From Acidobacteriota bacterium (GTDB lineage Bacteria > Acidobacteriota > Vicinamibacteria > Vicinamibacterales > JAMQPK01), in assembly GCA_031395755.1 (NCBI GenBank), contig JANNJO010000428.1, forward strand, positions 1-60,490: DNA of 60,490 nt. Reading direction: 5' to 3'. A program made the position numbers and the translations under genes. Of this stretch, positions 9,823 through 59,802 are shown one piece after another (positions within the stretch are counted from its first letter, which is position 1; each line of letters opens with the position of its first letter). The notes beneath the pieces were generated by a model, which saw only the letters and a list, made by a program, of their open reading frames with translations, was not told the DNA's origin and ran no database searches.

Positions 9823-9896
9823 GATGGCGGGACGGTCCCGATGGCGGGACGGATCCCGATGGTGGAACGGATCCCGATGGTGGGACGGATCCCGAT
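9823..9896. repeat. 18-bp tandem repeat (minisatellite), 4 full units plus a partial one
   Basis: Units GATGGCGGGACGG(A)TCCC at 9823, 9840, 9858 and 9876. The fifth unit (9894) runs into the REP hairpin. Intergenic. Confidence 0.9.
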
Positions 9897-9921
9897 GGTG
9901 GGGTCCGGCTTTAGCCGGACC
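9897..9921 (+). repeat. REP-like hairpin, intergenic copy
   Basis: GGTGGGGTCCGGCTTTAGCCGGACC, differing from the 9461 copy only in one loop base. Confidence 0.9.
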
Positions 9922-9924
9922 GCC

Positions 9925-10192
9925 GCGGATGAGCCTGACACGCGATCCTGGCGTGATTCTTGTTCACGTCGGATGCGTGACCGCGCATCCAGAGCGCCTC
10001 GAATCCTTTGACTAGTTTGCAATTCTTGCGTACTGTTTCATGCCGGACCACGTGCACGTCATTGTGCGAGGCGGCAGTGAGACGGCAAACCTCAAAACGT
10101 TTGCGTCGAAAGCAAAACAGTGCAGTGGGTACGCCTACGCACAGCAAAACGACAAAAAGCCGAACCCCACAGATTTCCTACCCCAGCAATGA
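9925..10192 (+). pseudogene. decayed RAYT / IS200-like (HUH Y1) transposase remnant
   Basis: One frame reads ...VILVHVGCVTAHPERLESFD*FAILAYCFMPDHVHVIVRGGSETANLKTFASKAKQCSGYAYAQ..., with an in-frame TAG at 10013-10015. The HUH motif (HVH) is in its typical hydrophobic context. The C-terminal catalytic Tyr region is missing, and the remnant ends overlapping the PfkB gene. Confidence 0.5.
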
Positions 10193-11098: not shown

Positions 11099-12127
11099 CT
11101 ACTGAATGCTGGCGACCTTGACCGGCTGGCCTGTGCGATGCGCCGCGGTGGCTGCCAGCGCGATCCGGAGGGCCTCCACGCCGTCCTTGATGACCACGGG
11201 CGGGACGCGATCGTGCAGCACGTTCTGCGCGAAATTCTGAAGCTGAATGGTGTAGGCGCGCTCGAACCGTTCCATGAAATAGGGCACCGTGTCATGCGTC
11301 ACGCTGTTCTTCGTCAGCGTCACAATCGGCGTTTCGCGAAGGTACCCGACGCGGACGGTGCCGGCGTCTCCAAGCAGCTCGGTGCTGATGTCGTATCCGT
11401 ACACGCCGTTCCGCGTCAGGTCAATCACTCCCAGCCGCCCGTCGGCAAACACCAGCGTCGCAATCGCGTTGTCGATGTCCCCGATCGAGGCCATCTCGGG
11501 ATAGGCAAGCACCGCGCCTACGGCGGACACCGTGTCGACCTCACCCATGAACCATCGGGCCAGATCGAAGTCGTGAATCCCCATGTCGACCATGATGCCG
11601 CCGCTGCTCGCCGGGTTCGCGTACTCGAGGCTGGGGCGGAACGGATCGCGCGAGGTCGACTTGAAGACCACGGGCCTCCCGATCGCCCCCTGGGAAATCT
11701 TCTCCTTCGCCGCCGCGTATCCCGGATCGAAGCGGCGCATGAAGCCCATCTGGAAGAAGGCCCCGGACGTCTCCACGGCGTCCGACATCGCGGCGCACTC
11801 GGCCAGGCTGAGGGCCGGCGGTTTCTCGCAGAACGTCGGCTTCCTGGAACGGGCCGCAGCCACCACGATCTCTCGATGGGTATGCGTCGGGCTCACAATG
11901 ACGACGGCGTCGACGTCGCGGTCGGCCATCAACTCTTCAGGAGAGCTGTACGCCTTCGGCACGTCGAACTCCTGCGCGATGCCTGTGGCCAGCGCGTGAT
12001 CCGTATCCGCGACGGCGACGACCGTCGTCTCGGAAATGCGCGCCGTCAGATCGCGGACGTAGACCTTTCCGAGACGCCCCAGGCCGACCACGCCCACCTT
12101 CAGCCGAGTGCGATTCTTCGAGGTCAT
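11099..12127 (-). CDS. Gfo/Idh/MocA-family oxidoreductase (inositol/sugar dehydrogenase-like)
   Basis: 342 aa with an N-terminal Rossmann motif [10 protein letters not shown] and the EKP motif (FCEKPPA). Confidence 0.85.
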
Positions 12128-14579: not shown

Positions 14580-15509
14580 GTGCTCCGATTCGCCGCCCTG
14601 CTGATCGCGGTTGTCGGCTCGAGCTGCAGCAGCTCGACACCGCCCGCCACACCGGTCATTGGTGTGTCGATGGCGCATTTCGACGACAACTTCCTCACAA
14701 TCCTTCGTCTCGCGATGGCGGAGCACGCGGCCACGTTTCCCGACGTCGCCCTGCAGTTCACCGACGCGCAAGGCGACGTCGGCAGGCAGCTGAGCCAGAT
14801 CCAGAGCTTCGTCGCCCAGGATGCGGCAGCCATCATCGTGAACGCCGCCGACACCGCGGCCACGTCGAGTATGACGAAGGCGGCCCGCGAGGCGGGTGTG
14901 CCGCTGGTGTACGTCAACCGCCGTCCCGCGGAGGCCACGCTGCCCGACGGCGTCGTTTTCGTCGGCTCCGAGGACTTTCAGGCGGGAACACTGGAGATGG
15001 AAGAGCTCGCGCGGCTGATGAACCACAGGGGGAACGTCGCCATCATGGTCGGCGAGCTGGCGTCGAACGGCGCGCAGCTCCGAACACAGGCGGTCGAGGA
15101 TGTCGTGGCGAAATATCCGGGCATGACGATCGTCGAAAAGCAGGTCGGCAATTTTCAGCGCGAGCGCGGGCTCGATCTCATGAACAACTGGCTCACGGCG
15201 GGAACACGGATCGATGCGGTCGCCGCCAACAACGACGAGATGGCCATCGGCGCCATCATGGCGATCCAGCAGGCCGGTCTCCCTCCCGGGAAGATTCTTG
15301 TCGGGGGCGTCGACGCGACGCCCGACGCGCTCGCGGAGCTGGCGAAGGGTACGCTGGCGGTGACGGTGTTTCAGAACGCTCGCGGACAGGCGAGAGGGGC
15401 AGTGGAGGCTGCCGTGAAAATGCTGCGCGGCGAAAAAGTCGCCAGCTTCGTGTGGATTCCCTTCGAGCTGGTCACCCGCGAGAATTACAAGGGGTTTGTG
15501 GACAGGTGA
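14580..15509 (+). CDS. sugar ABC transporter periplasmic substrate-binding lipoprotein (RbsB-like)
   Basis: 309 aa with lipobox-like LIAVVGSSC and a periplasmic-binding-protein type I pattern. Confidence 0.85.
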   Translation: MLRFAALLIAVVGSSCSSSTPPATPVIGVSMAHFDDNFLTILRLAMAEHAATFPDVALQFTDAQGDVGRQLSQIQSFVAQDAAAIIVNAADTAATSSMTKAAREAGVPLVYVNRRPAEATLPDGVVFVGSEDFQAGTLEMEELARLMNHRGNVAIMVGELASNGAQLRTQAVEDVVAKYPGMTIVEKQVGNFQRERGLDLMNNWLTAGTRIDAVAANNDEMAIGAIMAIQQAGLPPGKILVGGVDATPDALAELAKGTLAVTVFQNARGQARGAVEAAVKMLRGEKVASFVWIPFELVTRENYKGFVDR

Positions 15510-15511
15510 TC

Positions 15512-15666
15512 ACAGTCGGCAGTCGACAGTCGACAGTGATCAGTCTGAGTCGCCAGTCATCGCCTCAGTCGGGCAGTCGTGCCTCGCGACTCCGGACTGA
15601 GGCTTGTCGGACTGGGACTCTCGACTGCTGACTGGGACTGATGACCGACGACTGCCGACTAACGAC
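15512..15666. repeat. palindromic heptamer-word element (family 1, AGTCGNN / NNCGACT), locus A
   Basis: Fills the whole gap between the TGA at 15507-15509 and the convergent TAA at 15667-15669. The left half is built of CAGTC words and the right half of GACTG words. Perfect inverted repeats are 15514-15525/15649-15660 (12 bp) and 15563-15570/15595-15602 (8 bp). Confidence 0.9.
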
Positions 15667-17232
<1,566 letters not shown>

Positions 17233-17337: not shown

Positions 17338-18429
17338 GTGCCAGCCTTTGAGACCCTCGACCCCGAATTGCGGGGCGTCCTCGGCAAGCGGATCCGCGAG
17401 CTGGGGCTGCGCCTCGAGGGATCGCCTGTCGAGCCGTACGTGCGCCAGCTCTACAAGGAGCTCGAGCGGCGCGGCATGCACAAGTTCCGGCCCGTCTGCT
17501 ATCTCACCGACGAGTGGGGGTGTCCCGACATGCAGCCGGTGCTCGGCATCCCGTTTTATCTGGCCGACCCGAACCTCGGCAAGCTGGAGCGCGCCATCGA
17601 TGATCTCGAGGATGGCCGGGAGATCATGCGCTACATGCGGCACGAGGCCGGGCACGTCTTCAACTACGCGTACCGCCTCTACACGCGCCCGGACTGGCGC
17701 GCGACCTTCGGCCCGTTCGACCGGCCGTATCGTGACAAATACCGGCCCATCCCGTTCAGCCGCAACTACGTGCGCCACATGGAAGGGTGGTACGCGCAGA
17801 AGCACCCCGACGAGGACTTTGCGGAAACCTTCGCGGTGTGGCTGACTCCCGGAAGCGCGTGGCGCCGCCGATATAAAGGCTGGCCGGCGATGCGCAAGCT
17901 CCGATACGTGGATCGGATGGCGCGCGCCTTCGGCGATCAGGAGCCGATCGTGCGGACCGGTGAGGTCGACATCACCGTCGATGACATGCGACTGACGGTC
18001 GAGGAGTTCTACCGCCGCGCCGAAAAAGAGCGCGACATGCGGATTGATCTGGCCATGGACGGGCACTTATCCGAGATTTTCCTCACAAGAAAGCCGCGCG
18101 AGGGGCGCCTGGCGGCCACCATCGTCACGAAATACCGCCGCGAGCTGATCGACAAGATCACGTACTGGACCGGCGTAAGACGGCCCGTGGTCCGCGGCCT
18201 GGTCGAGGCAATCTGCAAGAACTGCGAGCGCCTGAAGCTCTGGGGAGAGATCGGCCGCGAGCCGGTCTACCTGGTCGAGCTGACCGCGTTCGGCACGACG
18301 CTGGCGATGAATTTCCTGACTCGTGGTACCTTCACGGGGGACACGGGGAGGAAAACAAAAGTTGAAGGTAAAAAGTCTAAAGTAGCAAATAAGTCGACAG
18401 TCGACAGTCCAAAGACCGCGGCGACCTGA
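17338..18429 (+). CDS. putative zinc metallopeptidase (HExxH; Peptidase_Mx-like)
   Basis: ORF 17284-18429 (TTG 17284 or GTG 17338). HEAGH motif in MRHEAGHVFNY, with a conserved DEDFAETFA downstream. The last ~25 aa are AT-rich, low-complexity and repeat-derived. Confidence 0.65.
   Translation: MPAFETLDPELRGVLGKRIRELGLRLEGSPVEPYVRQLYKELERRGMHKFRPVCYLTDEWGCPDMQPVLGIPFYLADPNLGKLERAIDDLEDGREIMRYMRHEAGHVFNYAYRLYTRPDWRATFGPFDRPYRDKYRPIPFSRNYVRHMEGWYAQKHPDEDFAETFAVWLTPGSAWRRRYKGWPAMRKLRYVDRMARAFGDQEPIVRTGEVDITVDDMRLTVEEFYRRAEKERDMRIDLAMDGHLSEIFLTRKPREGRLAATIVTKYRRELIDKITYWTGVRRPVVRGLVEAICKNCERLKLWGEIGREPVYLVELTAFGTTLAMNFLTRGTFTGDTGRKTKVEGKKSKVANKSTVDSPKTAAT
18392..18408. repeat. family-1 heptamer words inside a CDS tail (locus B)
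   Basis: AGTCGACAGTCGACAGT is identical to 15521-15537. Confidence 0.8.
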
Positions 18430-23946: not shown

Positions 23947-26583
23947 TCAGTGTTTCGCGGGGATATTGGACGGCGCGGCCAGCGTTTCGCGGATCTTATT
24001 GGCAAGGGCGTCGACGGAGAAGGGCTTCTGAATGAAGTGCGCGGTGGCCTTCTTCACGCCGTGGCGAAGAATCGCGTCGTCTGAGTAACCCGACATGTAA
24101 AGCACGCGGGTGTCCGGGCGCACGGCGGTGAGGCGCTCCGAGAGCAGTCGGCCGCTCAGACCGGGCATGACGACATCGGTCAGCAGCAGATGGATTCGGC
24201 CGCGATGGCGCGCCGCGATCTCCATAGCCTGATCGCCCGCCGACGCGAGCAGCACGGTGTAGCCGTACTTCCTGAGCATGTTCGCGACCAGCGCGCGTAC
24301 CCGATCGTCGTCTTCGACCAGCAGCACCGTTTCCGTTCCCGTCATCGACGTCAACAATTTCATCGGCGCTGGCTTGCCAAGGTCCACCGCGCGCGGCAGG
24401 TAGATGTAGAACGTGGTGCCGTGCCCCACACGGCTCTGCACTTCGATCGCGCCATTGCTCTGGCTGACGATGCCGTAGACGGTGGCGAGGCCGAGGCCCG
24501 TGCCTTTACTGCCTTCCTTGGTCGTGAAGAACGGCTCAAAGATTTGCGAAGCGGTCTCCGCATCCATGCCGCGGCCGTTGTCGCTGATCGCCATCTCGAC
24601 GTAGTCGCCCGGCTGCAGCCCGGGATGGGCGGCGACGCCGATCTTGTCGAGCTCGACGTTGCGCAGCTCAATCAGGATTCTGCCCCCTCCAGGCATCGCA
24701 TCGCGCGCGTTGATGATGAGATTCACCAGAATCTGCTCGATTTGCGTGCGGTCGGCCAGCACCGGCGTCAGGTCTGGCCAGATCTCGGTCGTGATCTGGA
24801 TGTCCGATCCAATCAGGCGCTGCAGCATGTTTCGCATGCTTTCGACGAGCTGATCGAGCTCGATGGCCTGTTGCGTAATCACCTGCCGCCGGCTGAAGGC
24901 CAGCAGCTGCCGCGTCAGGCCGGCTGCGCGGTCAGCCGCCTTGATGATCTCCTCGGCGTCGGCGCGCCTCTCGTCGCCTTCGCTGAGATTCAGGACGAGC
25001 ATTTCCGCGTAGCCGTGAATCGCCATCAGCAAATTGTTGAAGTCGTGCGCCACGCCGCCGGCGAGCCGGCCGATCGCTTCCATCTTCTGCGCCTGGCGGA
25101 GCTGTTCGTCGCGCTGGCGGAGGGTGTCCTGCGATAACTTGCGCTCCATCACGTCGCGGATGACGGCCGTAAACATGGTGCCGCCGGAGCCATGGAGTAC
25201 GGCCAATGAGAACTCGCTGGGAAATGTCCCGCCGTCCTTGCGCAGGGCCGCCACTTCGATGATCCTCCCGAACGTCAAATCGTCGGCGTTCGGCGCCGGC
25301 AGCGCGGCCGCGTACGCCGCGCGATCGGCCTCGGCGATGAGCATCGTCATGGACTGGCCGAGCGCTTCGTGTTCGGAATAGCCGAATGTGGCTTCCGCGC
25401 TTCGGTTCCAGAAGGTGATGTTGCCTTTTTCATCGGTCGAGACGATGGCGTCACGCGCGGATTGCGTGACGGTGGAGAAGCGCTCGTAAGACGCCTTCAA
25501 CCGCTCAGCCTGATCGCGCAAGCTGCGTGTCATGTCGTTGAAGGCCATCGCCATCGTCGTGGCTTCGGCGCTGCCGCGCGCCGGTACGGTCCGTGTCCAG
25601 TCTCCCCCGGCAATGTCGCGCGCTGCAGCAGCCATGTCCATCAGCGGACGGCTGGTGCGGCGGCTGAAGACGAGGCCGCCCGCCAGCGCGAGCGCGAAGC
25701 CGCCGACGCCGGCCAGGAGCAGGGCGTTCCGAAGCTCGTCCACGAACGCTTGCGTCGGCGCCCAGTCCTGGAGGAGCACGAGATGGCCGACGTCGGCCGA
25801 GCGTTGGTCGCGGAAGAGCGGGAACGTGCCCTCGATGAACTCGCGTCCTCCCAGCGTCCGCAGCGCGGACGACACACCGCGCACCTCCGTCAGGCTGCCG
25901 GCCGCCAGCGCCGCGGCCACTTGCTGTTGCTCGGGTCCGCTCAGGCTGCTCCCCGCGAGCAGGCTGCCTGAGACAAAATTGACGTCGGCTCGCGTCACCT
26001 GCGAGAGATCCTGCGCGACGCGATCATTGAGCGGAAACCCGAACGTCACGGTGCCGAGCAGTTCCGCTTCTGCGAACGTCGCCGGCTCGGAGGTGACGAG
26101 AAACAGGTTGCCCTCGACCGGCACGATGTCGCGCCGCGACTCTCCGGCCATGGCGCCGCGAATCGCGCGCTGCAGCCCCGGCGGCAGCGCGAGGTTCGGC
26201 GGCCAACCCGGCATGGCCGTCGGTGTGCCCGCGGGGTCCGTGAGAATCGAGAACTGCGCGCGGAGATCCTGCCTGTAGCTGTCCGCGAGCTGCGTCAGTG
26301 TCGCCACGTCGCCGGCGATCATCGGATTGATCATGGCGGAACGGAAGACGGGAAGCGCGATGATGAGGCGCGTCTGCTGTGCGGCAAACGACGCGCGATC
26401 GTCGACGAGCCTGTAGAAGGCGGACCGGGCGTCTTCGAGGTTATCCGCCGCGCGCGCCACGGCGCTCCTCGTCGCCACGCGAGTCGCGGTCACGATCACG
26501 GCGGAGAGCGCCAGCGCGACGAGGAGAAGCACACCCGCGGCCACGCGGGCTTCCATGCGGCGGTGCCACCTGAGCTGGGCCAT
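23947..26583 (-). CDS. hybrid sensor histidine kinase / response regulator (TM sensor, HAMP, PAS, HisKA, HATPase, REC)
   Basis: Part of ORF 23947-26835. ATG 26583 gives [27 protein letters not shown] (TM1). H-box VAHDFNNLL and a C-terminal REC domain ([11 protein letters not shown]). Confidence 0.85.
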
Positions 26584-26590
26584 GGTACCT

Positions 26591-26622
26591 GGTGATCTCG
26601 TGACCTTGTGATCTAGCGATCT
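26591..26622. repeat. octamer word array (family 2, reverse orientation), locus L
   Basis: GGTGATCT CGTGACCT TGTGATCT AGCGATCT lies between the kinase start (26583) and the stop of the truncated upstream gene (26621-26623). Confidence 0.85.
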
Positions 26623-26965
26623 ACTCGTAATGAGTATGTCGCGCTGAAGTCGAGCGAGTGTTTCCATCCCGGAACGAGAAGACGTTGTGAAACACCTTGT
26701 CGTTGTTCGGGAAGTCGACGGTCGTGCCGACTCGAACCACCAGGACGCCAGGCACGAAGCTGAGATTGCGCTGGTCGATGACGACCTTCGTGGTCTGCAC
26801 GAAGGCGAACGGACGCTCGACCTCCAGCCAGACAACGGCCTGCCCCGCAGGCTTTCCGGACGACTGAACCGTCCCGGTCAGGTCGGCGGCCAGAGCGGCT
26901 CCGGGCGTGAGGCACGTCAGCCCAATCGTGCCAATCGCCACAATAATGATGGCAAAGCGCTGCAT
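26621..26965 (-). pseudogene. cupredoxin-fold (plastocyanin-like) secreted protein, apparently C-terminally truncated
   Basis: From ATG 26965: MQRFAIIIVAIGTIGL...VGTTVDFPNNDKVFHNVFSF. The sequence then diverges and stops. As I recall the family, it continues with FDLGLY...CNIHxxM (Cu ligands), which are absent here. Confidence 0.45.
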
Positions 26966-33352: not shown

Positions 33353-33365
33353 GAATTGAACAGAA

Positions 33366-33408
33366 GACCAGGAGATCAGGAGTTTTGAACGATTTGTCTC
33401 CTGAACTC
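33366..33408. repeat. octamer word element (family 2), locus I
   Basis: CAGGAGAT CAGGAGTT (33369-33384), then the 7-bp stem TCAGGAG/CTCCTGA (33376-33382/33398-33404). Shares CTCCTGAACTC with 57539-57549. Confidence 0.85.
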
Positions 33409-35423: not shown

Positions 35424-35458
35424 TGACTGACGACCGACGACTGCCGACCGACGACTGT
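35424..35458. repeat. family-1 heptamer array (five units), locus C
   Basis: TGACTGA CGACCGA CGACTGC CGACCGA CGACTGT lies between the TGA at 35417-35419 and the convergent stop at 35460-35462. The 17-nt block 35432-35448 is identical to 15643-15659. Confidence 0.9.
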
Positions 35459-37894: not shown

Positions 37895-37983
37895 GCCGGA
37901 GTGGTGAAACTGGCAGACGCGCGGGACTCAAAATCCCGTGGGGTTCACTCCCCGTGAGGGTTCGATTCCCTCCTCCGGCACCA
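37895..37983 (+). tRNA. tRNA-Leu (anticodon CAA), CCA encoded
   Basis: Acceptor stem GCCGGAG/CTCCGGC, anticodon stem CGGGA/TCCCG with loop CTCAAAA, long variable arm (class II), T-arm GGTTCGATTCC, discriminator A plus CCA. TATAAT lies at 37878-37883, 11 nt upstream. Confidence 0.9.
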
Positions 37984-42853: not shown

Positions 42854-43516
42854 GTGAAATTGGCGATCAAACGCAAACAACTCAGCGACCAGGTCTCCGA
42901 GCTCACGACCAATCGCCTCTCGGTGTACCTCCGATGCCTCAACTCTCTGGATGCGGCAGGAGTGAAGACCGTGTCGTCGCAGTCGCTGGCGCACCAGTTC
43001 CACCTGAACGCGGCGCAGATTCGGAAGGACCTGGCGAATTTCGGCGAGTTCGGCGTCCGCGGGGTCGGCTACTACGTCAAGGATCTGCAGCAGCATCTTC
43101 GGCAGATCCTGGGACTCGAGCGACGGCTGAAGGTCGCGATACTCGGCGCGGGGAACCTCGGCCTCGCCCTCGCGGACTATCCGGGCTTCCGTCAGGAAGG
43201 ATTCCAGATGGTCGCGTTATTCGACGCGCTCTCGTCGAAGGTCGGGCAGCGTTCGCGGGCGGGCGTGCCGATCTTCGACATCAAGGATCTCCGGAAGATC
43301 GCGGCGCGCGAGAAAATCGCCATCGCCGTCATTGCTGTCCCCGCCGACTCGGCCCAGCACGTCGTCAATCAGGTGGTCGCCGCCGGCATCAAAGCGATCC
43401 TGAACTTTTCACCAGGAACGCTGCGAGCCCCCGACGATGTGAAATTGAAGAGCGTCGATCTGACCGTCTCGCTCGAAAGCTTGTCGTTCTACCTTGCGCA
43501 GGAAGAGGAAGAGTAG
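42854..43516 (+). CDS. rex: redox-sensing transcriptional repressor Rex
   Basis: 220 aa. Winged-helix N-terminus (RLSVYLRCL...SSQSLA) and a Rossmann NADH-binding motif (VAILGAGNLG). Confidence 0.9.
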   Translation: MKLAIKRKQLSDQVSELTTNRLSVYLRCLNSLDAAGVKTVSSQSLAHQFHLNAAQIRKDLANFGEFGVRGVGYYVKDLQQHLRQILGLERRLKVAILGAGNLGLALADYPGFRQEGFQMVALFDALSSKVGQRSRAGVPIFDIKDLRKIAAREKIAIAVIAVPADSAQHVVNQVVAAGIKAILNFSPGTLRAPDDVKLKSVDLTVSLESLSFYLAQEEEE

Positions 43517-43555
43517 GGATTAGGGATTGGGGATTAGGGATTAGGGATTAGATTA
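43514..43555 (+). repeat. TAGGGAT heptamer array (family 3, telomere-like, G-tract rich), locus F left arm
   Basis: TAGGGAT TAGGGAT TGGGGAT TAGGGAT TAGGGAT TAGATTA. It begins with the rex TAG stop and ends at the ATG of ORF 43555. Confidence 0.9.
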
Positions 43556-44136
43556 TGGCGGTACAAAGACGTGAGGCGCGACGACTGCCACGGCGACGCA
43601 GAACTAATCCCAAACCCCCGAGCCCTGATCCCCGGCAACTGTCACACGTCGACACGTCCGGGCGTGTCCGCATGGTGGACGTCGGGGACAAGGCGGAGAC
43701 GGCGCGCGAAGCGGTCGCTCGAGGCCGCATCAGCGTCGGCGCGGCAGCGTTGCGCGCGATTCGTGCCGGTAAGGTGAAGAAAGGGGACCCGCTCCAAACC
43801 GCCAGGCTTGCGGGCATCGTCGCGGCCAAGCGCACGTCCGACTTGATCCCTCTCTGCCATCCGCTGCCGATTTCGCACGTCGACGTCGAAATCACCCGTG
43901 TGAAGAACGGCTACACGATTGAATCCCGGGTGCGGACGACCGCGAGAACCGGCGTCGAGATGGAAGCGCTCACGGCGGTGGCCATCGCAGCGCTCACGAT
44001 CTACGACATGCTGAAAGCGATCGACAAGACAATGGTCATCGGGGAGATCTGCGTGCTCGAGAAACGGGGAGGACGCTCGGGGGAGTACCTTCGGAGTCGG
44101 CAGTCGGCAGTCGTAAGGCGTAAGGCCAGGAAGTGA
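43555..44136 (+). CDS. moaC: cyclic pyranopterin monophosphate synthase MoaC
   Basis: Conserved core from LSHVDTSGRVRMVDVGDK to EKRGGRSGEY. The first ~28 aa (from ATG 43555) and the last 15 aa are encoded by repeat elements. Alternative in-frame starts are CTG 43639 and ATG 43672. Confidence 0.85.
   Translation: MAVQRREARRLPRRRRTNPKPPSPDPRQLSHVDTSGRVRMVDVGDKAETAREAVARGRISVGAAALRAIRAGKVKKGDPLQTARLAGIVAAKRTSDLIPLCHPLPISHVDVEITRVKNGYTIESRVRTTARTGVEMEALTAVAIAALTIYDMLKAIDKTMVIGEICVLEKRGGRSGEYLRSRQSAVVRRKARK
43604..43633 (+). repeat. C-tract partner arm of locus F
   Basis: CTAATCCCAAACCCCCGAGCCCTGATCCCC. Its first 8 nt are the perfect complement of 43544-43551, and further C-tracts face the G-tracts. 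Confidence 0.75.
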
Positions 44137-44221
44137 GTACCGACGGAGACTCTCGACTGCTGACTGGGACTACTGACTGCTGACTGAGACTGACGACTAA
44201 CGACTGCTGACTGACGACTCC
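44093..44221. repeat. family-1 heptamer-word element with 22-bp terminal inverted repeats (MITE-like), locus D
   Basis: GGAGTCGGCAGTCGGCAGTCGT (44093-44114) matches the reverse complement of 44200-44221 (GGAGTCGTCAGTCAGCAGTCGT) at 20/22. The 24-nt block 44148-44171 is identical to 15616-15639. Confidence 0.85.
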
Positions 44222-45114
44222 TTCGGTGGCGGTTCAATGTGGATGATTGCATCCGCGATTTGCGGATAACGTTCCATCAGGAGATCCTTCACCTGGTGCG
44301 ACACGGCGTGCGCATCGGTGAGCGGGGTCGCGCCATCCAGCCAGACGTGGAGATCGAGAAAGACGTGGTCGGCCGAGCCGCGGGAACGGATGTGGTGGCA
44401 GCCAAGCACGGTGGGCACGCTTTGCACGACCCGCCGGACATCGTCCTCGGAAATCACAATCGCATCCGACAGAATCTTGGCGGCATCGCGCGCGATGGTG
44501 AAGCCCGCATAGCCGATGAAGCCGATGATGACGACCGCCGCGAGCGGATCGAGAATGGGATACCCGATGGCCGAGCCCGCGAGCGCGGCGATGACCGCAA
44601 TCGACGTCAGCACGTCGCTCTGCGTGTGGCGCGCATCGGCGAGCAGCAGCTCACTGGAAAGACGCCGGCCGGCCCCGCGTTCGAACCGCACGACGGCTAT
44701 ATTGATGGCCAGCGTGGCGAACATGATGGCGAAACTGGCCGCTGTGACGGACGGCGCGCCGCCGGTCCGAAACCTGGCGAAGGCCAACTGCGCGATTTCG
44801 ACGACGATCACGAGGAGGAAGAGCGCGACGGCCGCGGCTGCGAGCGTTTCGAACTTTCGGTGGCCGTAGGGATGATTGGCATCAGGCGGCTTGTTCGCGA
44901 GCCGCAGACCGACGAGCGCCACGACGTTCGACGCGCCGTCGGTCAGGGAGTGGAACCCATCCGACAGAATGCTGATCGAGCCGGTCAGGTGGCCGAAGGC
45001 GACCTTGGTGAGTGCGACGGCCAGGTTGAGGAGAAGGATGCGGAGGAGGACGCGCCGGACTTCGCGGTAGCGGGAGTCGCGGGTTAGAAAAGTCGTGCGG
45101 TCGGTATCGGCCAC
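44197..45114 (-). CDS. cation diffusion facilitator (CDF) family metal efflux transporter
   Basis: ORF 44197-45243. GTG 45114 is the last canonical in-frame start before TM1. Contains SILSDGFHSLTDG and HPYGHRKFE motifs and a C-terminal cytoplasmic domain. Confidence 0.85.
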   Translation of the reverse strand: MADTDRTTFLTRDSRYREVRRVLLRILLLNLAVALTKVAFGHLTGSISILSDGFHSLTDGASNVVALVGLRLANKPPDANHPYGHRKFETLAAAAVALFLLVIVVEIAQLAFARFRTGGAPSVTAASFAIMFATLAINIAVVRFERGAGRRLSSELLLADARHTQSDVLTSIAVIAALAGSAIGYPILDPLAAVVIIGFIGYAGFTIARDAAKILSDAIVISEDDVRRVVQSVPTVLGCHHIRSRGSADHVFLDLHVWLDGATPLTDAHAVSHQVKDLLMERYPQIADAIIHIEPPPKESSVSSR

Positions 45115-50437: not shown

Positions 50438-50486
50438 GCAGAGAGGGCAGAGGGCGGAGGGAAGAGAACTTAGAACTTAGAACCTA
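50438..50486. repeat. seven phased heptamers (family 4): GCAGAGA GGGCAGA GGGCGGA GGGAAGA GAACTTA GAACTTA GAACCTA, locus G
   Basis: Starts 2 nt after the TGA at 50434-50436 and runs across the convergent stop (50470-50472) into the last 5 codons of the glycosyltransferase. Confidence 0.9.
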
Positions 50487-51600
50487 GCGCCAGGATCTCA
50501 TCCGCCGCGACGTCAGCGCCGTTCAGCGCGGGTGTTTCAGGCGGCGCCGGCTGGCTCAGCAGCGCCTCGAGCGCCGGCGCCCAGTTCCCCTTCAGCAAGT
50601 CCTCCTGCTCGATGAACTGCGCGCGGAGATAGCGCGGCATCTCTCGCACGAGCACCTCGTATTCGACGAAGCGGCCGCGCGACGTGTAGAGGATGGCCGT
50701 ATCGTTGGCGATCGATTCGCTGATGATCCCGTAGCCGGGTTTCGTCACGACGACATCTGCGGCGCGGACGAGATCTTCGTACCGATACCCGTCGGCGTGC
50801 AGTTGCTGCTCCGACAGATAGAGCACCCCCGGCGCCAGTTCGATCGCATGATCGCGGGTGGGCAGGTCGGTCGTCGCGATGCGGTAGTCTCGCAGCGCGC
50901 CGACCCTGCTGCTCTCGAGGTCCGCCAATCCGTACCCACCGAATGACATCAGGACGAGCGGCTTGTCCCCTGCGCGCGGCGGCAGGCCGAGCGCTCGCCG
51001 CACCTCATCCGGTTCGCGCCGCGATTGCCGGGCGACGAAAGGGATGTCGCGCGTGACGCGCTCGAGTCCCGCGAAACCTCCGGACGCGGGGAGCCGCAGC
51101 GCCCTGGTCGCCTTCTGGTAGGTTGCGCGAATCTCCTGCGAGAGCTCGAAAGGCGACTGCTCCGGGTACCCCTCGTAGATCCAGTCCCACGTGAAGTTGC
51201 CGATCGCCACCGCAGGTACACCGGCGGCGGCCGCCGCCGCAAAGGCCAGCGGCGGAATATCGCCGACCACCACTCGCGCGCCCGCCTGCCGAAGAAATGC
51301 GGCTTCGCTCTCGGCTTTGTGCGGCAGCTCTGCCTGAAACGCCCGTGCCTGCCTGATGCTCTCAGCTTCGTCGATATGAAGACTGTCGATCTGGACCATG
51401 CCGGTGTCGCATGACAGCTCCGCGAACTCGATTCGACCCGCCAGCGCGCGTTCGAACAGGCGTCTGGGCGCCGGCGTCTTTACAACAATCGCGGCGTCCG
51501 GCCGGCGGCGAAGGACCGCCTGGATGACTTCGATGGTCCGCGACGTGTGGCCGAAACCGTGCCCCGACACGTAAAAGACGATGGGATATGATGGGCTCAT
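50470..51600 (-). CDS. glycosyltransferase (GT-B fold, MurG/GT28-like)
   Basis: 376 aa. N-terminal FYVSGHGFGHTSR and a C-terminal nucleotide-sugar-binding-like region (VVTKPGYGIISE). Confidence 0.65.
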   Translation of the reverse strand: MSPSYPIVFYVSGHGFGHTSRTIEVIQAVLRRRPDAAIVVKTPAPRRLFERALAGRIEFAELSCDTGMVQIDSLHIDEAESIRQARAFQAELPHKAESEAAFLRQAGARVVVGDIPPLAFAAAAAAGVPAVAIGNFTWDWIYEGYPEQSPFELSQEIRATYQKATRALRLPASGGFAGLERVTRDIPFVARQSRREPDEVRRALGLPPRAGDKPLVLMSFGGYGLADLESSRVGALRDYRIATTDLPTRDHAIELAPGVLYLSEQQLHADGYRYEDLVRAADVVVTKPGYGIISESIANDTAILYTSRGRFVEYEVLVREMPRYLRAQFIEQEDLLKGNWAPALEALLSQPAPPETPALNGADVAADEILALGSKF

Positions 51601-56196: not shown

Positions 56197-56268
56197 AAAC
56201 AGGAGCTCAGGAGGTTAGGAGAATGTATTTCAAGAGCCAAGCTTCTGATCTCGTGATCTCCTGTCTGG
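56197..56268. repeat. family-2 octamer element forming an imperfect hairpin around a start codon, locus K
   Basis: Left arm CAGGAGCT CAGGAGGT TAGGAGAA (56200-56223) and right arm TCTGATCT CGTGATCT CCTGTCTG (56244-56267). ATG 56223 and codons 2-7 lie in the loop. Confidence 0.85.
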
Positions 56269-57537: not shown

Positions 57538-57564
57538 CCTCCTGAACTCCTTATCTCCTGTTTG
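57538..57564. repeat. family-2 octamer element, locus J (inverted relative to K)
   Basis: The reverse complement CAAACAGGAGATAAGGAGTTCAGGAGG equals the K left arm (AAACAGGAG-C-TCAGGAGGTT) with one extra 8-nt unit. It lies between two convergent stops. Confidence 0.85.
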
Positions 57565-57565
57565 A

Positions 57566-58474
57566 TTATTTCGACAGCCGCGCTTCGATCGGTCCGAGCG
57601 ACCCAAGCACGACGTCACCGACGATCTGCAGGCTGCGCGCCGAGGTCTGGTCCAGCGTGTCGCCGGCGGTGTGCCAGGCGGGGTAGTCGAGGTCGATGAT
57701 GTCGGTGGCCGGTACGCCGGCTTTCAGAAACGGGACGTGATCGTCTTCGATGGGCGTGTTCGCGTTGACGAAGACGGCGCCGTGACCCAGACGCTGGGCG
57801 GTGGTCCAGATGATGTCGGTGAGCCACGGCGTTGAATTGGTCTCGCGGATGAAGCGCTGGGAGCGTTCGGCGATCATGTCCACCAGCACCAAGGCCTTCA
57901 GGCCGGACAGCGTTCCGGAGTTCCGGGCGTGATCCACGTAGTACTGGCTGCCGTAGGTGTGGTCCGTCCCGCCCCAATCCCGCAGCGTGGCCTCTTCGCC
58001 GTCGAAAAAAATCAGCTCGATTGTGAACGCGTTCGGCCGGCCCTTCAGCACGCGCGCCAGTTCAATCAGGAACGCCGTGCTCGAGCCGCCGTCGTTGGCG
58101 CCCACGAACCGGAATTCCCGGAACAGCTTCGTGTCGTAGTGGCCGGCGAGGGCGATCCGTTCTTTGCGCGCGCCCGGGATCGTGGCGATCAGGTTCACCA
58201 TCGGAATCTCGCCAATGGGGGTCTTCGCCGTGAACGGCTGCCGAACGACCGTCACGCCTGCCGTCGTGAGCTGCTCGATGATATAGCCGCGGGTGCGCTC
58301 GATGGCAGGAGAACCCGCCGGCCGCGGTCCCAAGGCCACGACCTGGCGCAGGTGCTCGTACGCGCGGGCGGCATCGAAGACGGCTTCTGGCTTCCGGCCC
58401 TGGGCTTCGGGGCTGGTCGCGCACGCGACGACGCCGATGAGCGCCAGGACCCAGAACCTAGAACCTGGAACCAA
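57566..58474 (-). CDS. M28-family peptidase / glutaminyl-cyclase-like
   Basis: 302 aa. AGHYDTK, GANDGGSSTA and FFDGEEA motifs. TTG start at 58474. N-terminal residues VPGSRFWVL are encoded by heptamer repeats. Confidence 0.85.
   Translation of the reverse strand: MVPGSRFWVLALIGVVACATSPEAQGRKPEAVFDAARAYEHLRQVVALGPRPAGSPAIERTRGYIIEQLTTAGVTVVRQPFTAKTPIGEIPMVNLIATIPGARKERIALAGHYDTKLFREFRFVGANDGGSSTAFLIELARVLKGRPNAFTIELIFFDGEEATLRDWGGTDHTYGSQYYVDHARNSGTLSGLKALVLVDMIAERSQRFIRETNSTPWLTDIIWTTAQRLGHGAVFVNANTPIEDDHVPFLKAGVPATDIIDLDYPAWHTAGDTLDQTSARSLQIVGDVVLGSLGPIEARLSK
58447..58474. repeat. family-4 heptamers GGACCCA GAACCTA GAACCTG GAACCAA, locus H
   Basis: Uses the same GAACYTA word as 50466-50486. 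It covers the first 9 codons of the M28 gene and ends 2 nt from the gltA stop. Confidence 0.85.
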
Positions 58475-58475
58475 T

Positions 58476-59753
<1,278 letters not shown>

Positions 59754-59759
<6 letters not shown>

Positions 59760-59802
59760 CAGTCGTCAGTCATCAGTCGTCAGTCGTCAGTCGTCAGTCG
59801 CA
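59754..59802. repeat. family-1 heptamer array, seven units AGTC(A/G)TC, locus E
   Basis: AGTCATC AGTCGTC AGTCATC AGTCGTC AGTCGTC AGTCGTC AGTCGCA. It contains the gltA start codon (59757-59759) and the yacG stop (59787-59789). Confidence 0.95.

Follow-up and report, generated by a model that had tools for sequence, protein, structure and literature searches.

What kind of element fills the entire gap between two convergent genes and is built wholly from short, degenerate seven-nucleotide words? The question is posed by positions 15510-15666 of contig JANNJO010000428.1 from an Acidobacteriota bacterium (Vicinamibacterales; assembly GCA_031395755.1), a 60,490-nt stretch of DNA that is referred to below as the window and that alone represents the source genome. 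We interpret the element, with a probability of roughly 0.7, as an opposed pair of heptanucleotide simple-sequence repeats and as one locus of a lineage-wide system that occupies short intergenic gaps. Among the known bacterial heptanucleotide repeats it is a further example of the inverted-pair form described from Xanthomonas, found in a new lineage and composed of new words.

The focal palindrome and its heptamer units

The 157-nt gap separates an open reading frame (ORF) on the + strand (14580-15509), identified by profile match as the periplasmic sugar-binding protein of an ABC transporter (Peripla_BP_4, PF13407, E 9e-57), from a gene on the - strand (15667-17232) whose product matches the GAF, Sigma54_activat and HTH_8 profiles of a transcriptional activator. 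As a first-pass annotation of the window had described, the gap is one imperfect palindrome of CAGTC and GACTG heptamers and abuts both flanking stop codons: the opening AGTCGNN unit lies 2-3 nt past the TGA of the binding-protein gene, and the terminal CGACT of the right arm shares 1 nt with the TAA of the activator gene. The left arm (15512-15579) holds ~9 (C)AGTCGNN units, most of them 7 nt long and some 6 nt or longer, and Tandem Repeats Finder (TRF) reports period 7/14 at 15512-15558. Sequence and unit parsing place ~11 GACTGNN units in the right arm (15586-15667). The inverted arms at 15514-15558 and 15623-15667 are 78% complementary, and the best-paired centre is an inner core hairpin at 15562-15603, GCCTCAGTCGGG ... 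CCGGACTGAGGC, which is 92% complementary and in which the perfect inverted pair CCTCAGTC/GACTGAGG was verified. Two perfect inverted blocks reported earlier, 15514-15525/15649-15660 and 15563-15570/15595-15602, are both exact.

GACTG-type arrays occur at five window loci (15.5, 18.39, 35.43, 44.1 and 59.75 kb). Of their 48 GAC(T/C)-initiated segments, 34 have a length of exactly 7 nt, and these 34 units comprise just 12 words. The window contains 11 matches to GACTGNN x4 at up to 2 mismatches, where shuffled sequence predicts 0.00. Among window arrays with at least 2.8 copies, TRF assigns a period of 7, 14 or 20 to 8 of 9. An autocorrelation test at lag 7, proposed with the first-pass annotation and run here on the 60-kb window, bears out the dominance of that period: among lags from 3 to 15, only lag 7 (besides its multiple 14) gives several 28-nt stretches whose self-identity is 75% or higher (15510-40, 35425-52, 43507-52, 44089-123 and 59747-800), lag 8 giving one. 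Heptamer loci number nine in 60 kb, all in ORF tails or gene junctions, and array sequence makes up ~530 of the ~6500 non-coding bases. Across 187 kb of window and relatives, tandem arrays have period 7 in 35 cases, period 8 in 11 and period 6 in 7; in a control of 0.8 Mb of loci not picked for repeats, period 7 accounts for 5 of 58 arrays.

The element had initially not been recognised as a described family. Published heptanucleotide repeats nevertheless include several words per genome, inverted pairs near the ends of ORFs and abutment on start codons (PMC4692102, PMC4679880, PMC2700814). Such repeats have been known since the cyanobacterial short tandemly repeated repetitive (STRR) sequences and, as cited in PMC4679880 and PMC4692102, are over-represented more strongly than any other class of longer simple repeats; the same two papers cite Mrazek 2007 as having proposed polymerase slippage. 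The hallmarks of heptanucleotide long simple-sequence repeats (LSSR) of the STRR type are all present here, namely head-to-tail 7-nt units, an excess of period 7, multiple non-coding loci and variation in unit number. The focal element also has the form of an inverted array pair as in Xanthomonas, with the same word on opposite strands, close together and near an ORF end.

In Xanthomonas campestris and X. axonopodis, GGGAATC heptamers form ~185 arrays per genome, ~90% of them intergenic and on average 28 nt from the upstream ORF. They include 70-75 inverted pairs, convergent on opposite strands and capable of forming stem-loops, and they occupy the same junctions in the two species with variable length and sequence; no function or regulatory role was found for them (Rehm et al. 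2015, PMC4692102). The focal element resembles these arrays in its tandem 7-nt units with degenerate positions, arranged as an inverted pair near an ORF end, but differs in its word (GACTGNN), in its phylum, in the presence of several unrelated words and in the change of word between relatives. Regularly repeated GGG runs are absent from GACTGNN and AGTCGNN units, and a G-quadruplex is not expected in the focal element because its units, unlike GGGAATC, have no G-tracts. TAGGGAT arrays in the window do have such runs and resemble the Xanthomonas and Nostoc words. Nostoc carries GGGGA(C/T)T arrays, with few inverted pairs reported, and Calothrix three tandem heptamers (PMC4692102).

Marine Beggiatoaceae contain TAACTGA direct repeats that are mostly intergenic and often lie at a start codon or a few nt from it; there is one dominant word, one reported inverted case and a patchy distribution across phyla, and translational regulation has been proposed (MacGregor 2015, PMC4679880). 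The window's (CGACTGA)x7 array at the citrate synthase gene gltA likewise reaches the start codon, and its word has ACTGA in common with TAACTGA. Geobacter metallireducens carries GGGACCG x4 at 49 sites and MTYCTGA x5 at 15 sites (PMC2700814). These too are multicopy intergenic arrays, of 4-5 heptamers, and MTYCTGA ends in CTGA; unlike the focal element they have a fixed unit number, are annotated as putative regulator sites or RNA elements and have no hairpin pairs described (PMC2700814).

We scanned one genome per species (596 Gb) for exact GACTGNN x4. The scan returned at least 120 loci in many phyla, where ~1 chance match is expected because the pattern has 20 fixed bases. The matches listed include Cyanobacteria (Microcoleus, Nostoc, Tychonema, Calothrix and Dolichospermum), Acidobacteriota, Gemmatimonadales, Chloroflexota, Planctomycetota, Bacteroidota, Omnitrophota and Actinomycetota. 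Cyanobacterial STRRs comprise several heptamer words per genome, tandem in non-coding DNA, with arrays of different words abutting; the genomes are low in G+C and the arrays often long and perfect. The likeness includes the word itself, as GACTGGG and GACTGTT arrays were found by the scan in Nostoc, Microcoleus, Tychonema and Calothrix, and GACTGGG is the rotated complement of CCCCAGT. Tandem arrays in the listed loci have period 7 in 256 of 370 cases. Among the matches listed, arrays of different heptamers often adjoin each other, and more than one phylum has inverted pairs of the form CAGTC.../...GACTG, several phyla being represented (loci L002, L041, L088, L093 and L116 are examples). Our literature search found no paper mentioning both Acidobacteria and heptanucleotide, and the arrays described here add a high-G+C soil lineage (Vicinamibacterales, Acidobacteriota) to the heptanucleotide-repeat picture, one in which several words coexist and whole gaps between convergent genes are composed of them.

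A separate observation concerns the order of the arms. In listed loci with a G+C content of at least 0.55, a crude detection always placed the CAGTC arm 5′ of the GACTG arm (9 array-strands at 7 loci versus 0), and both window hairpins have this order. In the listed low-G+C loci, mostly from cyanobacteria and Bacteroidota, equally crude detection found the GACTG arm 5′ more commonly (6 loci versus 3).

Orthologous junctions in related genomes

Orthologues of the flanking activator, at 76-95% identity, come from sources named as Vicinamibacterales (Acidobacteriota). We compared syntenic contigs at the activator (L121-L125, with coding DNA 75-85% identical to the window), at citrate synthase (L206 and L207) and at a cation diffusion facilitator (CDF) transporter gene and its MoaC neighbour (L208-L210). 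In L121 and L123 (94% protein identity) the focal gap is filled by a hairpin of different words, TGGGCTY x4-5 facing AAAGYCC x4, with folding energies of -48.6 and -39.1 kcal/mol (z -4.9 and -5.7). In L122 the gap measures 55 nt and is free of heptamers, although L121 and L122 encode identical activator proteins and share 97% identity across 11.7 kb. L124 and L125 have other neighbours and no array there. More distant metagenome relatives (L126-L143, L192) showed no arrays downstream of the sigma-54 activator gene, but synteny is lost there.

At the MoaC/CDF junction the word family is retained and the number of units changes. The window has 11+3 units of AGTCGNN/GACTGNN, L208 has 10+3 and L210 has 13+9, the last folding to -117.6 kcal/mol (z -10.8); L209 has 5+0 units and no fold. 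A comparison of relatives for presence/absence polymorphism, suggested at the outset as a check, gave a focal hairpin present in L121 and missing from L122 and a MoaC/CDF element that varies by units.

Between gltA and the next gene (M28), the window has GGTTCYN x3.4 and both L206 and L207 have ~9 units. At the Rex/MoaC junction, the TAGGGAT-type hairpin of the window corresponds to a hairpin in L208, a single arm in L209 and nothing in L210. The convergent gap at 50.4 kb holds GCCCTCT-type and AGAACTT units in the window, GCCCTCT x7 in L208 and other words in L209 and L210. Arrays may also be confined to the relatives. Upstream of glnD, where the window has none, L121 carries a TAGGGAT/ATCCCTA hairpin with 26 contiguous pairs (z -7.0) and L123 GGGAATC-like words; between glnE and pfkB, where the window has no heptamer array, L121 and L123 carry CAATCTN x5-9; and between the divergent activator and peptidase genes, again without an array in the window, L121-L123 carry (N)GAACC(N) x9.

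Across species that keep arrays or hairpins at the same junctions, the flanking proteins are 84-91% identical, and the words GACTGNN, TAGGGAT, GAACCTA, GCCCTCT and GGAATCT recur across species at non-orthologous places. The comparison shows, at the level of sequence, that an array at one junction can persist with a new unit number, swap its word or be absent. Orthologous junctions can be compared in each of these states, so that the lineage lends itself to comparative work on how the arrays originate and on whether their hairpin forms act as terminators without a U-tract.

Origin of the arrays, possible effects and rival explanations

On our interpretation, which the comparison supports as the most likely, arrays would grow, shrink and change word in place through slippage-type gain and loss of 7-nt units. 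They would be seeded from sequence already present at gene ends, with occasional copying between arrays, and the particular sequence of any array would be dispensable and turn over fast. In-place seeding finds support upstream of gltA. There, a (CGACTGA)x7 array of the window extends from the stop codon (TGA) of a yacG-like gene into the gltA ATG, while L206 and L207 have TAA, 5-6 nt and ATGGCTGAY. What comparison shows is change in unit number, word mosaics, fast turnover, merging with codons and the dominance of period 7; as their molecular cause we infer replication slippage or unequal recombination, plus occasional conversion between arrays.

The focal RNA folds to -91.0 kcal/mol on the + strand and -90.1 on the - strand, where dinucleotide shuffles give -63 and -59 (z -6.5 and -6.6), and none of 200 shuffles was equally stable. 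When word order was shuffled within the arms, the energy was -79 kcal/mol (sd 5) against the -91 observed (P 0.02), and the same shuffle changed L210 from -107 to -96 kcal/mol (P 0.05). Because word-shuffled arms still fold to -79, the focal hairpin derives mainly from the complementary vocabularies of its arms. A mirror-ordered palindrome, with arms copied word for word, was rejected, as word-order shuffles keep most of the stability. When loci were folded singly, another of the suggested checks, structures were significant for the focal and 44.1-kb elements (the latter at z -2.6) and for the TAGGGAT pair (+ strand, z -4.0), but not for the single-arm 35.4-kb array (z -0.2 / -0.8) or the mixed-word 50.4-kb array. 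At the gathering score, Rfam covariance models matched only a tRNA in the window (37895-37980) and left the focal element unmatched.

With complementary arm vocabularies, both convergent transcripts would end in a stem-loop of about -90 kcal/mol, the likely effect of the element. Such a 3′ stem-loop would hinder read-through and 3′-to-5′ exonucleases, and the hairpin would serve as a bidirectional terminator lacking a U-tract, as an insulator or as a stabiliser of mRNA. Of these, the role of bidirectional terminator is a plausible one for the focal element. The analogy is with hairpins of repetitive extragenic palindromes (REPs) and bacterial interspersed mosaic elements (BIMEs), which protect mRNA 3′ ends and attenuate read-through in enterobacteria, and with the terminators without U-tracts of high-G+C bacteria. 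In L121 and at the Rex/MoaC locus, G.U pairs make the sense-strand fold better by ~7-10 kcal/mol, a small strand asymmetry that hints at constraint at the RNA level.

A number of observations weigh against this interpretation, and most of them bear on its functional step. No T/U run follows the stem on either strand of the focal element, and a consensus terminator scan did not call the site; a canonical intrinsic terminator was rejected on these two counts, although the stem is present. Arrays without hairpins occupy other convergent gaps as single arms with no fold, and because such arrays exist and L209 has lost its partner arm, an array can persist without a hairpin. Over the 187 kb from the clade, arrays lie at 11 of 34 convergent junctions versus 17 of 119 other junctions (P 0.02). 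This enrichment counts in favour of our interpretation, but would be just as likely if convergent junctions, lacking promoters and ribosome-binding sites, were merely the places that tolerate arrays best. Comparison of L121 with L122 indicates that the element is dispensable at the level of 97% identity. Nor does slippage alone account for the preference for 7 nt, or for the recurrence of TAGGGAT, GAACCTA, GCCCTCT and GACTGNN at non-orthologous loci across species.

The rival explanation that survives best, and to which we assign somewhat less than even odds, holds that the arrays are a selectively neutral by-product, 7-nt-biased mutational junk that is kept where harmless, hairpin included, and whose effects on transcripts are incidental. 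Turnover fast enough to leave an element in only one of two contigs as close as L121 and L122 fits this explanation well, as do the differing words at one junction, the single-arm and non-folding arrays at equivalent junctions and arms as unequal as 11+3 and 5+0 units. The Xanthomonas heptamer repeats, for which no regulatory role was found (PMC4692102), are a precedent. Neutrality accounts less readily for arrays and hairpins kept at the same junctions beside proteins of 84-91% identity, for a vocabulary common to species at non-orthologous sites, or for the G.U-dependent advantage of the sense strand.

Both the 7-nt preference and the recurring words, to which related words in distant phyla (xxACTGA, GGGAxTx) may be added, might instead reflect a conserved machinery by which nucleic acid is written or read in a 7-nt register, such as a property of a polymerase or primase or a ring-shaped RNA- or DNA-binding protein. 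We regard this as a long shot; if true, heptamer arrays and hairpin pairs would constitute a widespread, functionally used intergenic layer. Another proposal, slightly less probable still, is that the arrays are phased binding sites: a multimeric protein that binds RNA or DNA would recognise the 7-nt register and thereby regulate translation or the fate of transcripts. The array that runs into the gltA start codon leaves no space for a separate ribosome-binding site, which parallels the Beggiatoaceae repeats directly upstream of start codons (PMC4679880), and words conserved across species resemble xxACTGA and GGGAxTx of other phyla. Set against this are the presence of at least five unrelated words in one genome, the swapping of words at the same junction between close relatives, neighbouring genes without a common function and the failure to identify a candidate protein.

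About as improbable is the proposal, raised in the first-pass annotation as a REP-like mobile hairpin, that these are small non-autonomous elements resembling REPs, REPINs (paired inverted REPs) or miniature inverted-repeat transposable elements (MITEs), copied by a transposase such as Y1 (IS200/RAYT type, RAYT being the REP-associated tyrosine transposase). Among its supports was a set of five blocks shared between distant loci (24, 17, 17, 12 and 12 nt), all of which are exact and none of which can be extended. Within the 24-nt block (15616-15639 = 44148-44171) are one word that is rare and one unit of irregular length, 6 nt. In a permutation test in which all 48 GAC(T/C)-initiated segments were pooled and redealt among the window loci, the longest block shared between loci had a median of 18 nt, and 24 nt was attained in 1.5% of permutations (P ~0.015). 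The 17- and 12-nt blocks are expected because the unit vocabulary is small, as this median shows. Recurrence of the same words at distant loci stands; identity beyond chance is limited to the 24-nt block. That block is a weak hint of copying, for example by ectopic conversion between two arrays, and not proof of a mobile family; with only one block unusual in the permutation test, the shared blocks were set aside as evidence of mobility.

Identical words at non-orthologous loci of several species would also be consistent with mobile hairpins, as would a Y1_Tnp-like fragment in the window (10008-10192, E 5.5e-4), which is below cut-off and interrupted by a stop. This fragment is not flanked by the heptamer words, and no RAYT (Y1 transposase) gene flanked by repeats was found in the window. 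A REP is a discrete palindromic unit, conserved in sequence and 20-40 nt long, that is mobilised by a RAYT transposase. The focal element shares with REPs, BIMEs and REPINs an extragenic position, often in convergent gaps or at 3′ ends, and hairpins in the transcript, a likeness that is probably one of functional analogy; unlike them it consists of tandem 7-mers, has no conserved unit and varies by unit number. Unit, length and ends are all unconserved: heptamer loci are 18-157 nt long with differing word orders, some (35425-35457, 59751-59800) have a single arm, and arms range from 0 to ~13 units at one orthologous site. A REP or REPIN was rejected for want of a discrete, near-identical 20-40-nt palindrome unit. 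The orthologous MoaC/CDF element varies by whole units, not by presence or absence, and arrays merge with local codons (gltA ATG, Rex TAG). CCTTCGG, a 7-bp sequence on both sides of the 44.1-kb element, was considered as a target-site duplication and rejected as a transposition scar because both copies are conserved coding sequence, forming the ends of the CDF and MoaC genes in relatives. A MITE was rejected on this ground and because relatives carry an array at MoaC/CDF and not an empty site. GTGATCA, found at 15506-12 and 15535-41, fits local duplication better than insertion. A CRISPR array was also rejected, the focal units being contiguous 7-mers without spacers.

The focal element has stops in all three frames on each strand, and several window ORFs end inside arrays, observations in favour of a dedicated translation-stop module closing all three frames after each gene. 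Three-frame closure is real but not a matter of design. Since 7 is not divisible by 3, tandem copies of any heptamer word that contains a stop will close every frame, and among 153 period-7 arrays, not selected for GACTG but mostly from loci fetched by the GACTGNN scan, 87 have stop-containing words on either strand, against 87.3 from letter shuffles (P 0.56). With stop words at the composition expectation, many words stop-free (AGTCGGC, AGAGGGC, GACTGGG, GACTGCC) and the focal arm adjoining each gene closing one frame only while the far arm closes three, a stop module is refuted as a selected feature and we give it next to no credence.

Other arrays, gene annotation and minor features of the window

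At 18358-18409, AAAGTNN units followed by AGTCGAC x2.6 (TRF) lie in the 3′ tail of a Peptidase_Mx-like ORF; one of the 17-nt blocks is common to this locus and the left arm of the focal element, and relatives have AAAGTNN arrays at the corresponding junction. The 35.4-kb array is a single arm of GACTGAC/GACCGAC x4.4 on the + strand between convergent stop codons (35425-35457, TRF), with no significant fold. TAGGGAT x5.4 (43514-43551, + strand, TRF) starts inside the TAG stop of the Rex-like gene and folds with a degenerate ATCCC-type partner arm (43604-43633, + strand) into a hairpin upstream of MoaC, with an energy of -54.6 kcal/mol (z -4.0) on the + strand and -47.9 (z -2.1) on the - strand.

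The 44.1-kb element has two unequal arms. The short one, AGTCGGC x3 (44091-44113, TRF), lies where MoaC ends, and the MoaC ORF reads into it. The long one, of ~11 GACTGNN units (44148-44222), holds the stop and last codons of the CDF transporter gene on the - strand and has the 24-nt block in common with the right arm of the focal element. AGAGGGC x3.6 abuts AGAACTT x3.3 at 50442-50487 (TRF), filling a 33-nt convergent gap without a significant fold. GAACCTA x3.4 (58449-58472, TRF) follows the stop codon of citrate synthase and precedes the next gene start. On the - strand, (CGACTGA/TGACTGA) x7 (59751-59800) holds the yacG-like TGA in its first unit and the citrate synthase ATG in its last.

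Several ORFs end or start in arrays, as at the MoaC tail, the last CDF codons, the stop of the yacG-like ORF and the start codon (ATG) of gltA. Translated arrays add spurious tails at the C-terminus or extensions at the N-terminus, which explains why ORF ends and starts are often miscalled in these genomes. Within the window, arrays are read as coding at 44084-44136 (MoaC tail), 44197-44225 (CDF tail) and 18358-18429 (Peptidase_Mx-like tail), and the array at 58449-58474 is read as the start of a lipoprotein-like ORF after gltA. Citrate synthase is called at 581 residues in L206 (10001-11746) and at 471 in L207 (10001-11416) instead of 427. A 104-nt GCCCTYT run of ~15 units lies inside a called CHAD-domain gene of L206 (4530-4633); intergenic arrays of the same word occur in L208 and, in complementary form, at 50442-50466 of the window. 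In L210, where the start of the MoaC ORF overlaps the end of Rex (11530-11570), the period-7 run GGCTCCG GGCTCCC GGCTTCG GGCCTGA seems to be translated as an N-terminal extension.

At the glnE/pfkB junction the repeats of relatives and window differ. In L121, the CAATCTN array downstream of glnE (17095-17205, - strand as fetched) is C-rich, G-poor and essentially without structure, at -9 kcal/mol for 111 nt (z 0.0), a composition as expected of a Rho-loading site rather than of a hairpin terminator. The 393-nt gap in the window holds at 9823-9902 an 18-nt tandem repeat, GATGGTGGGACGGATCCC x4.5, with 93% matches, followed by a perfect 8-bp hairpin, GGTCCGGC TTTA GCCGGACC. The stop-interrupted, IS200-type Y1 transposase-like fragment described above (FAILAYCFMPDHVHVIVRG..., PF01797) comes after this hairpin.

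A second family in the window has period 8, with the word CAGGAGNN or its complement CTCCTGNN, which contain a Shine-Dalgarno-like AGGAG, at 33361-33382, 56200-56221 and 57539-57560. At 33361, two AGGAG-type units stand opposite an inverted CTCCTG. At 56200-56221, three units, CAGGAGCT CAGGAGGT TAGGAGA, stop 1 nt short of an ATG (56223). The sole lag-8 signal in the window is the run GTGATCTC GTGACCTT GTGATCTA GCGATCTA at 26587-26616, near the 5′ end of a large - strand ORF (23947-26835).

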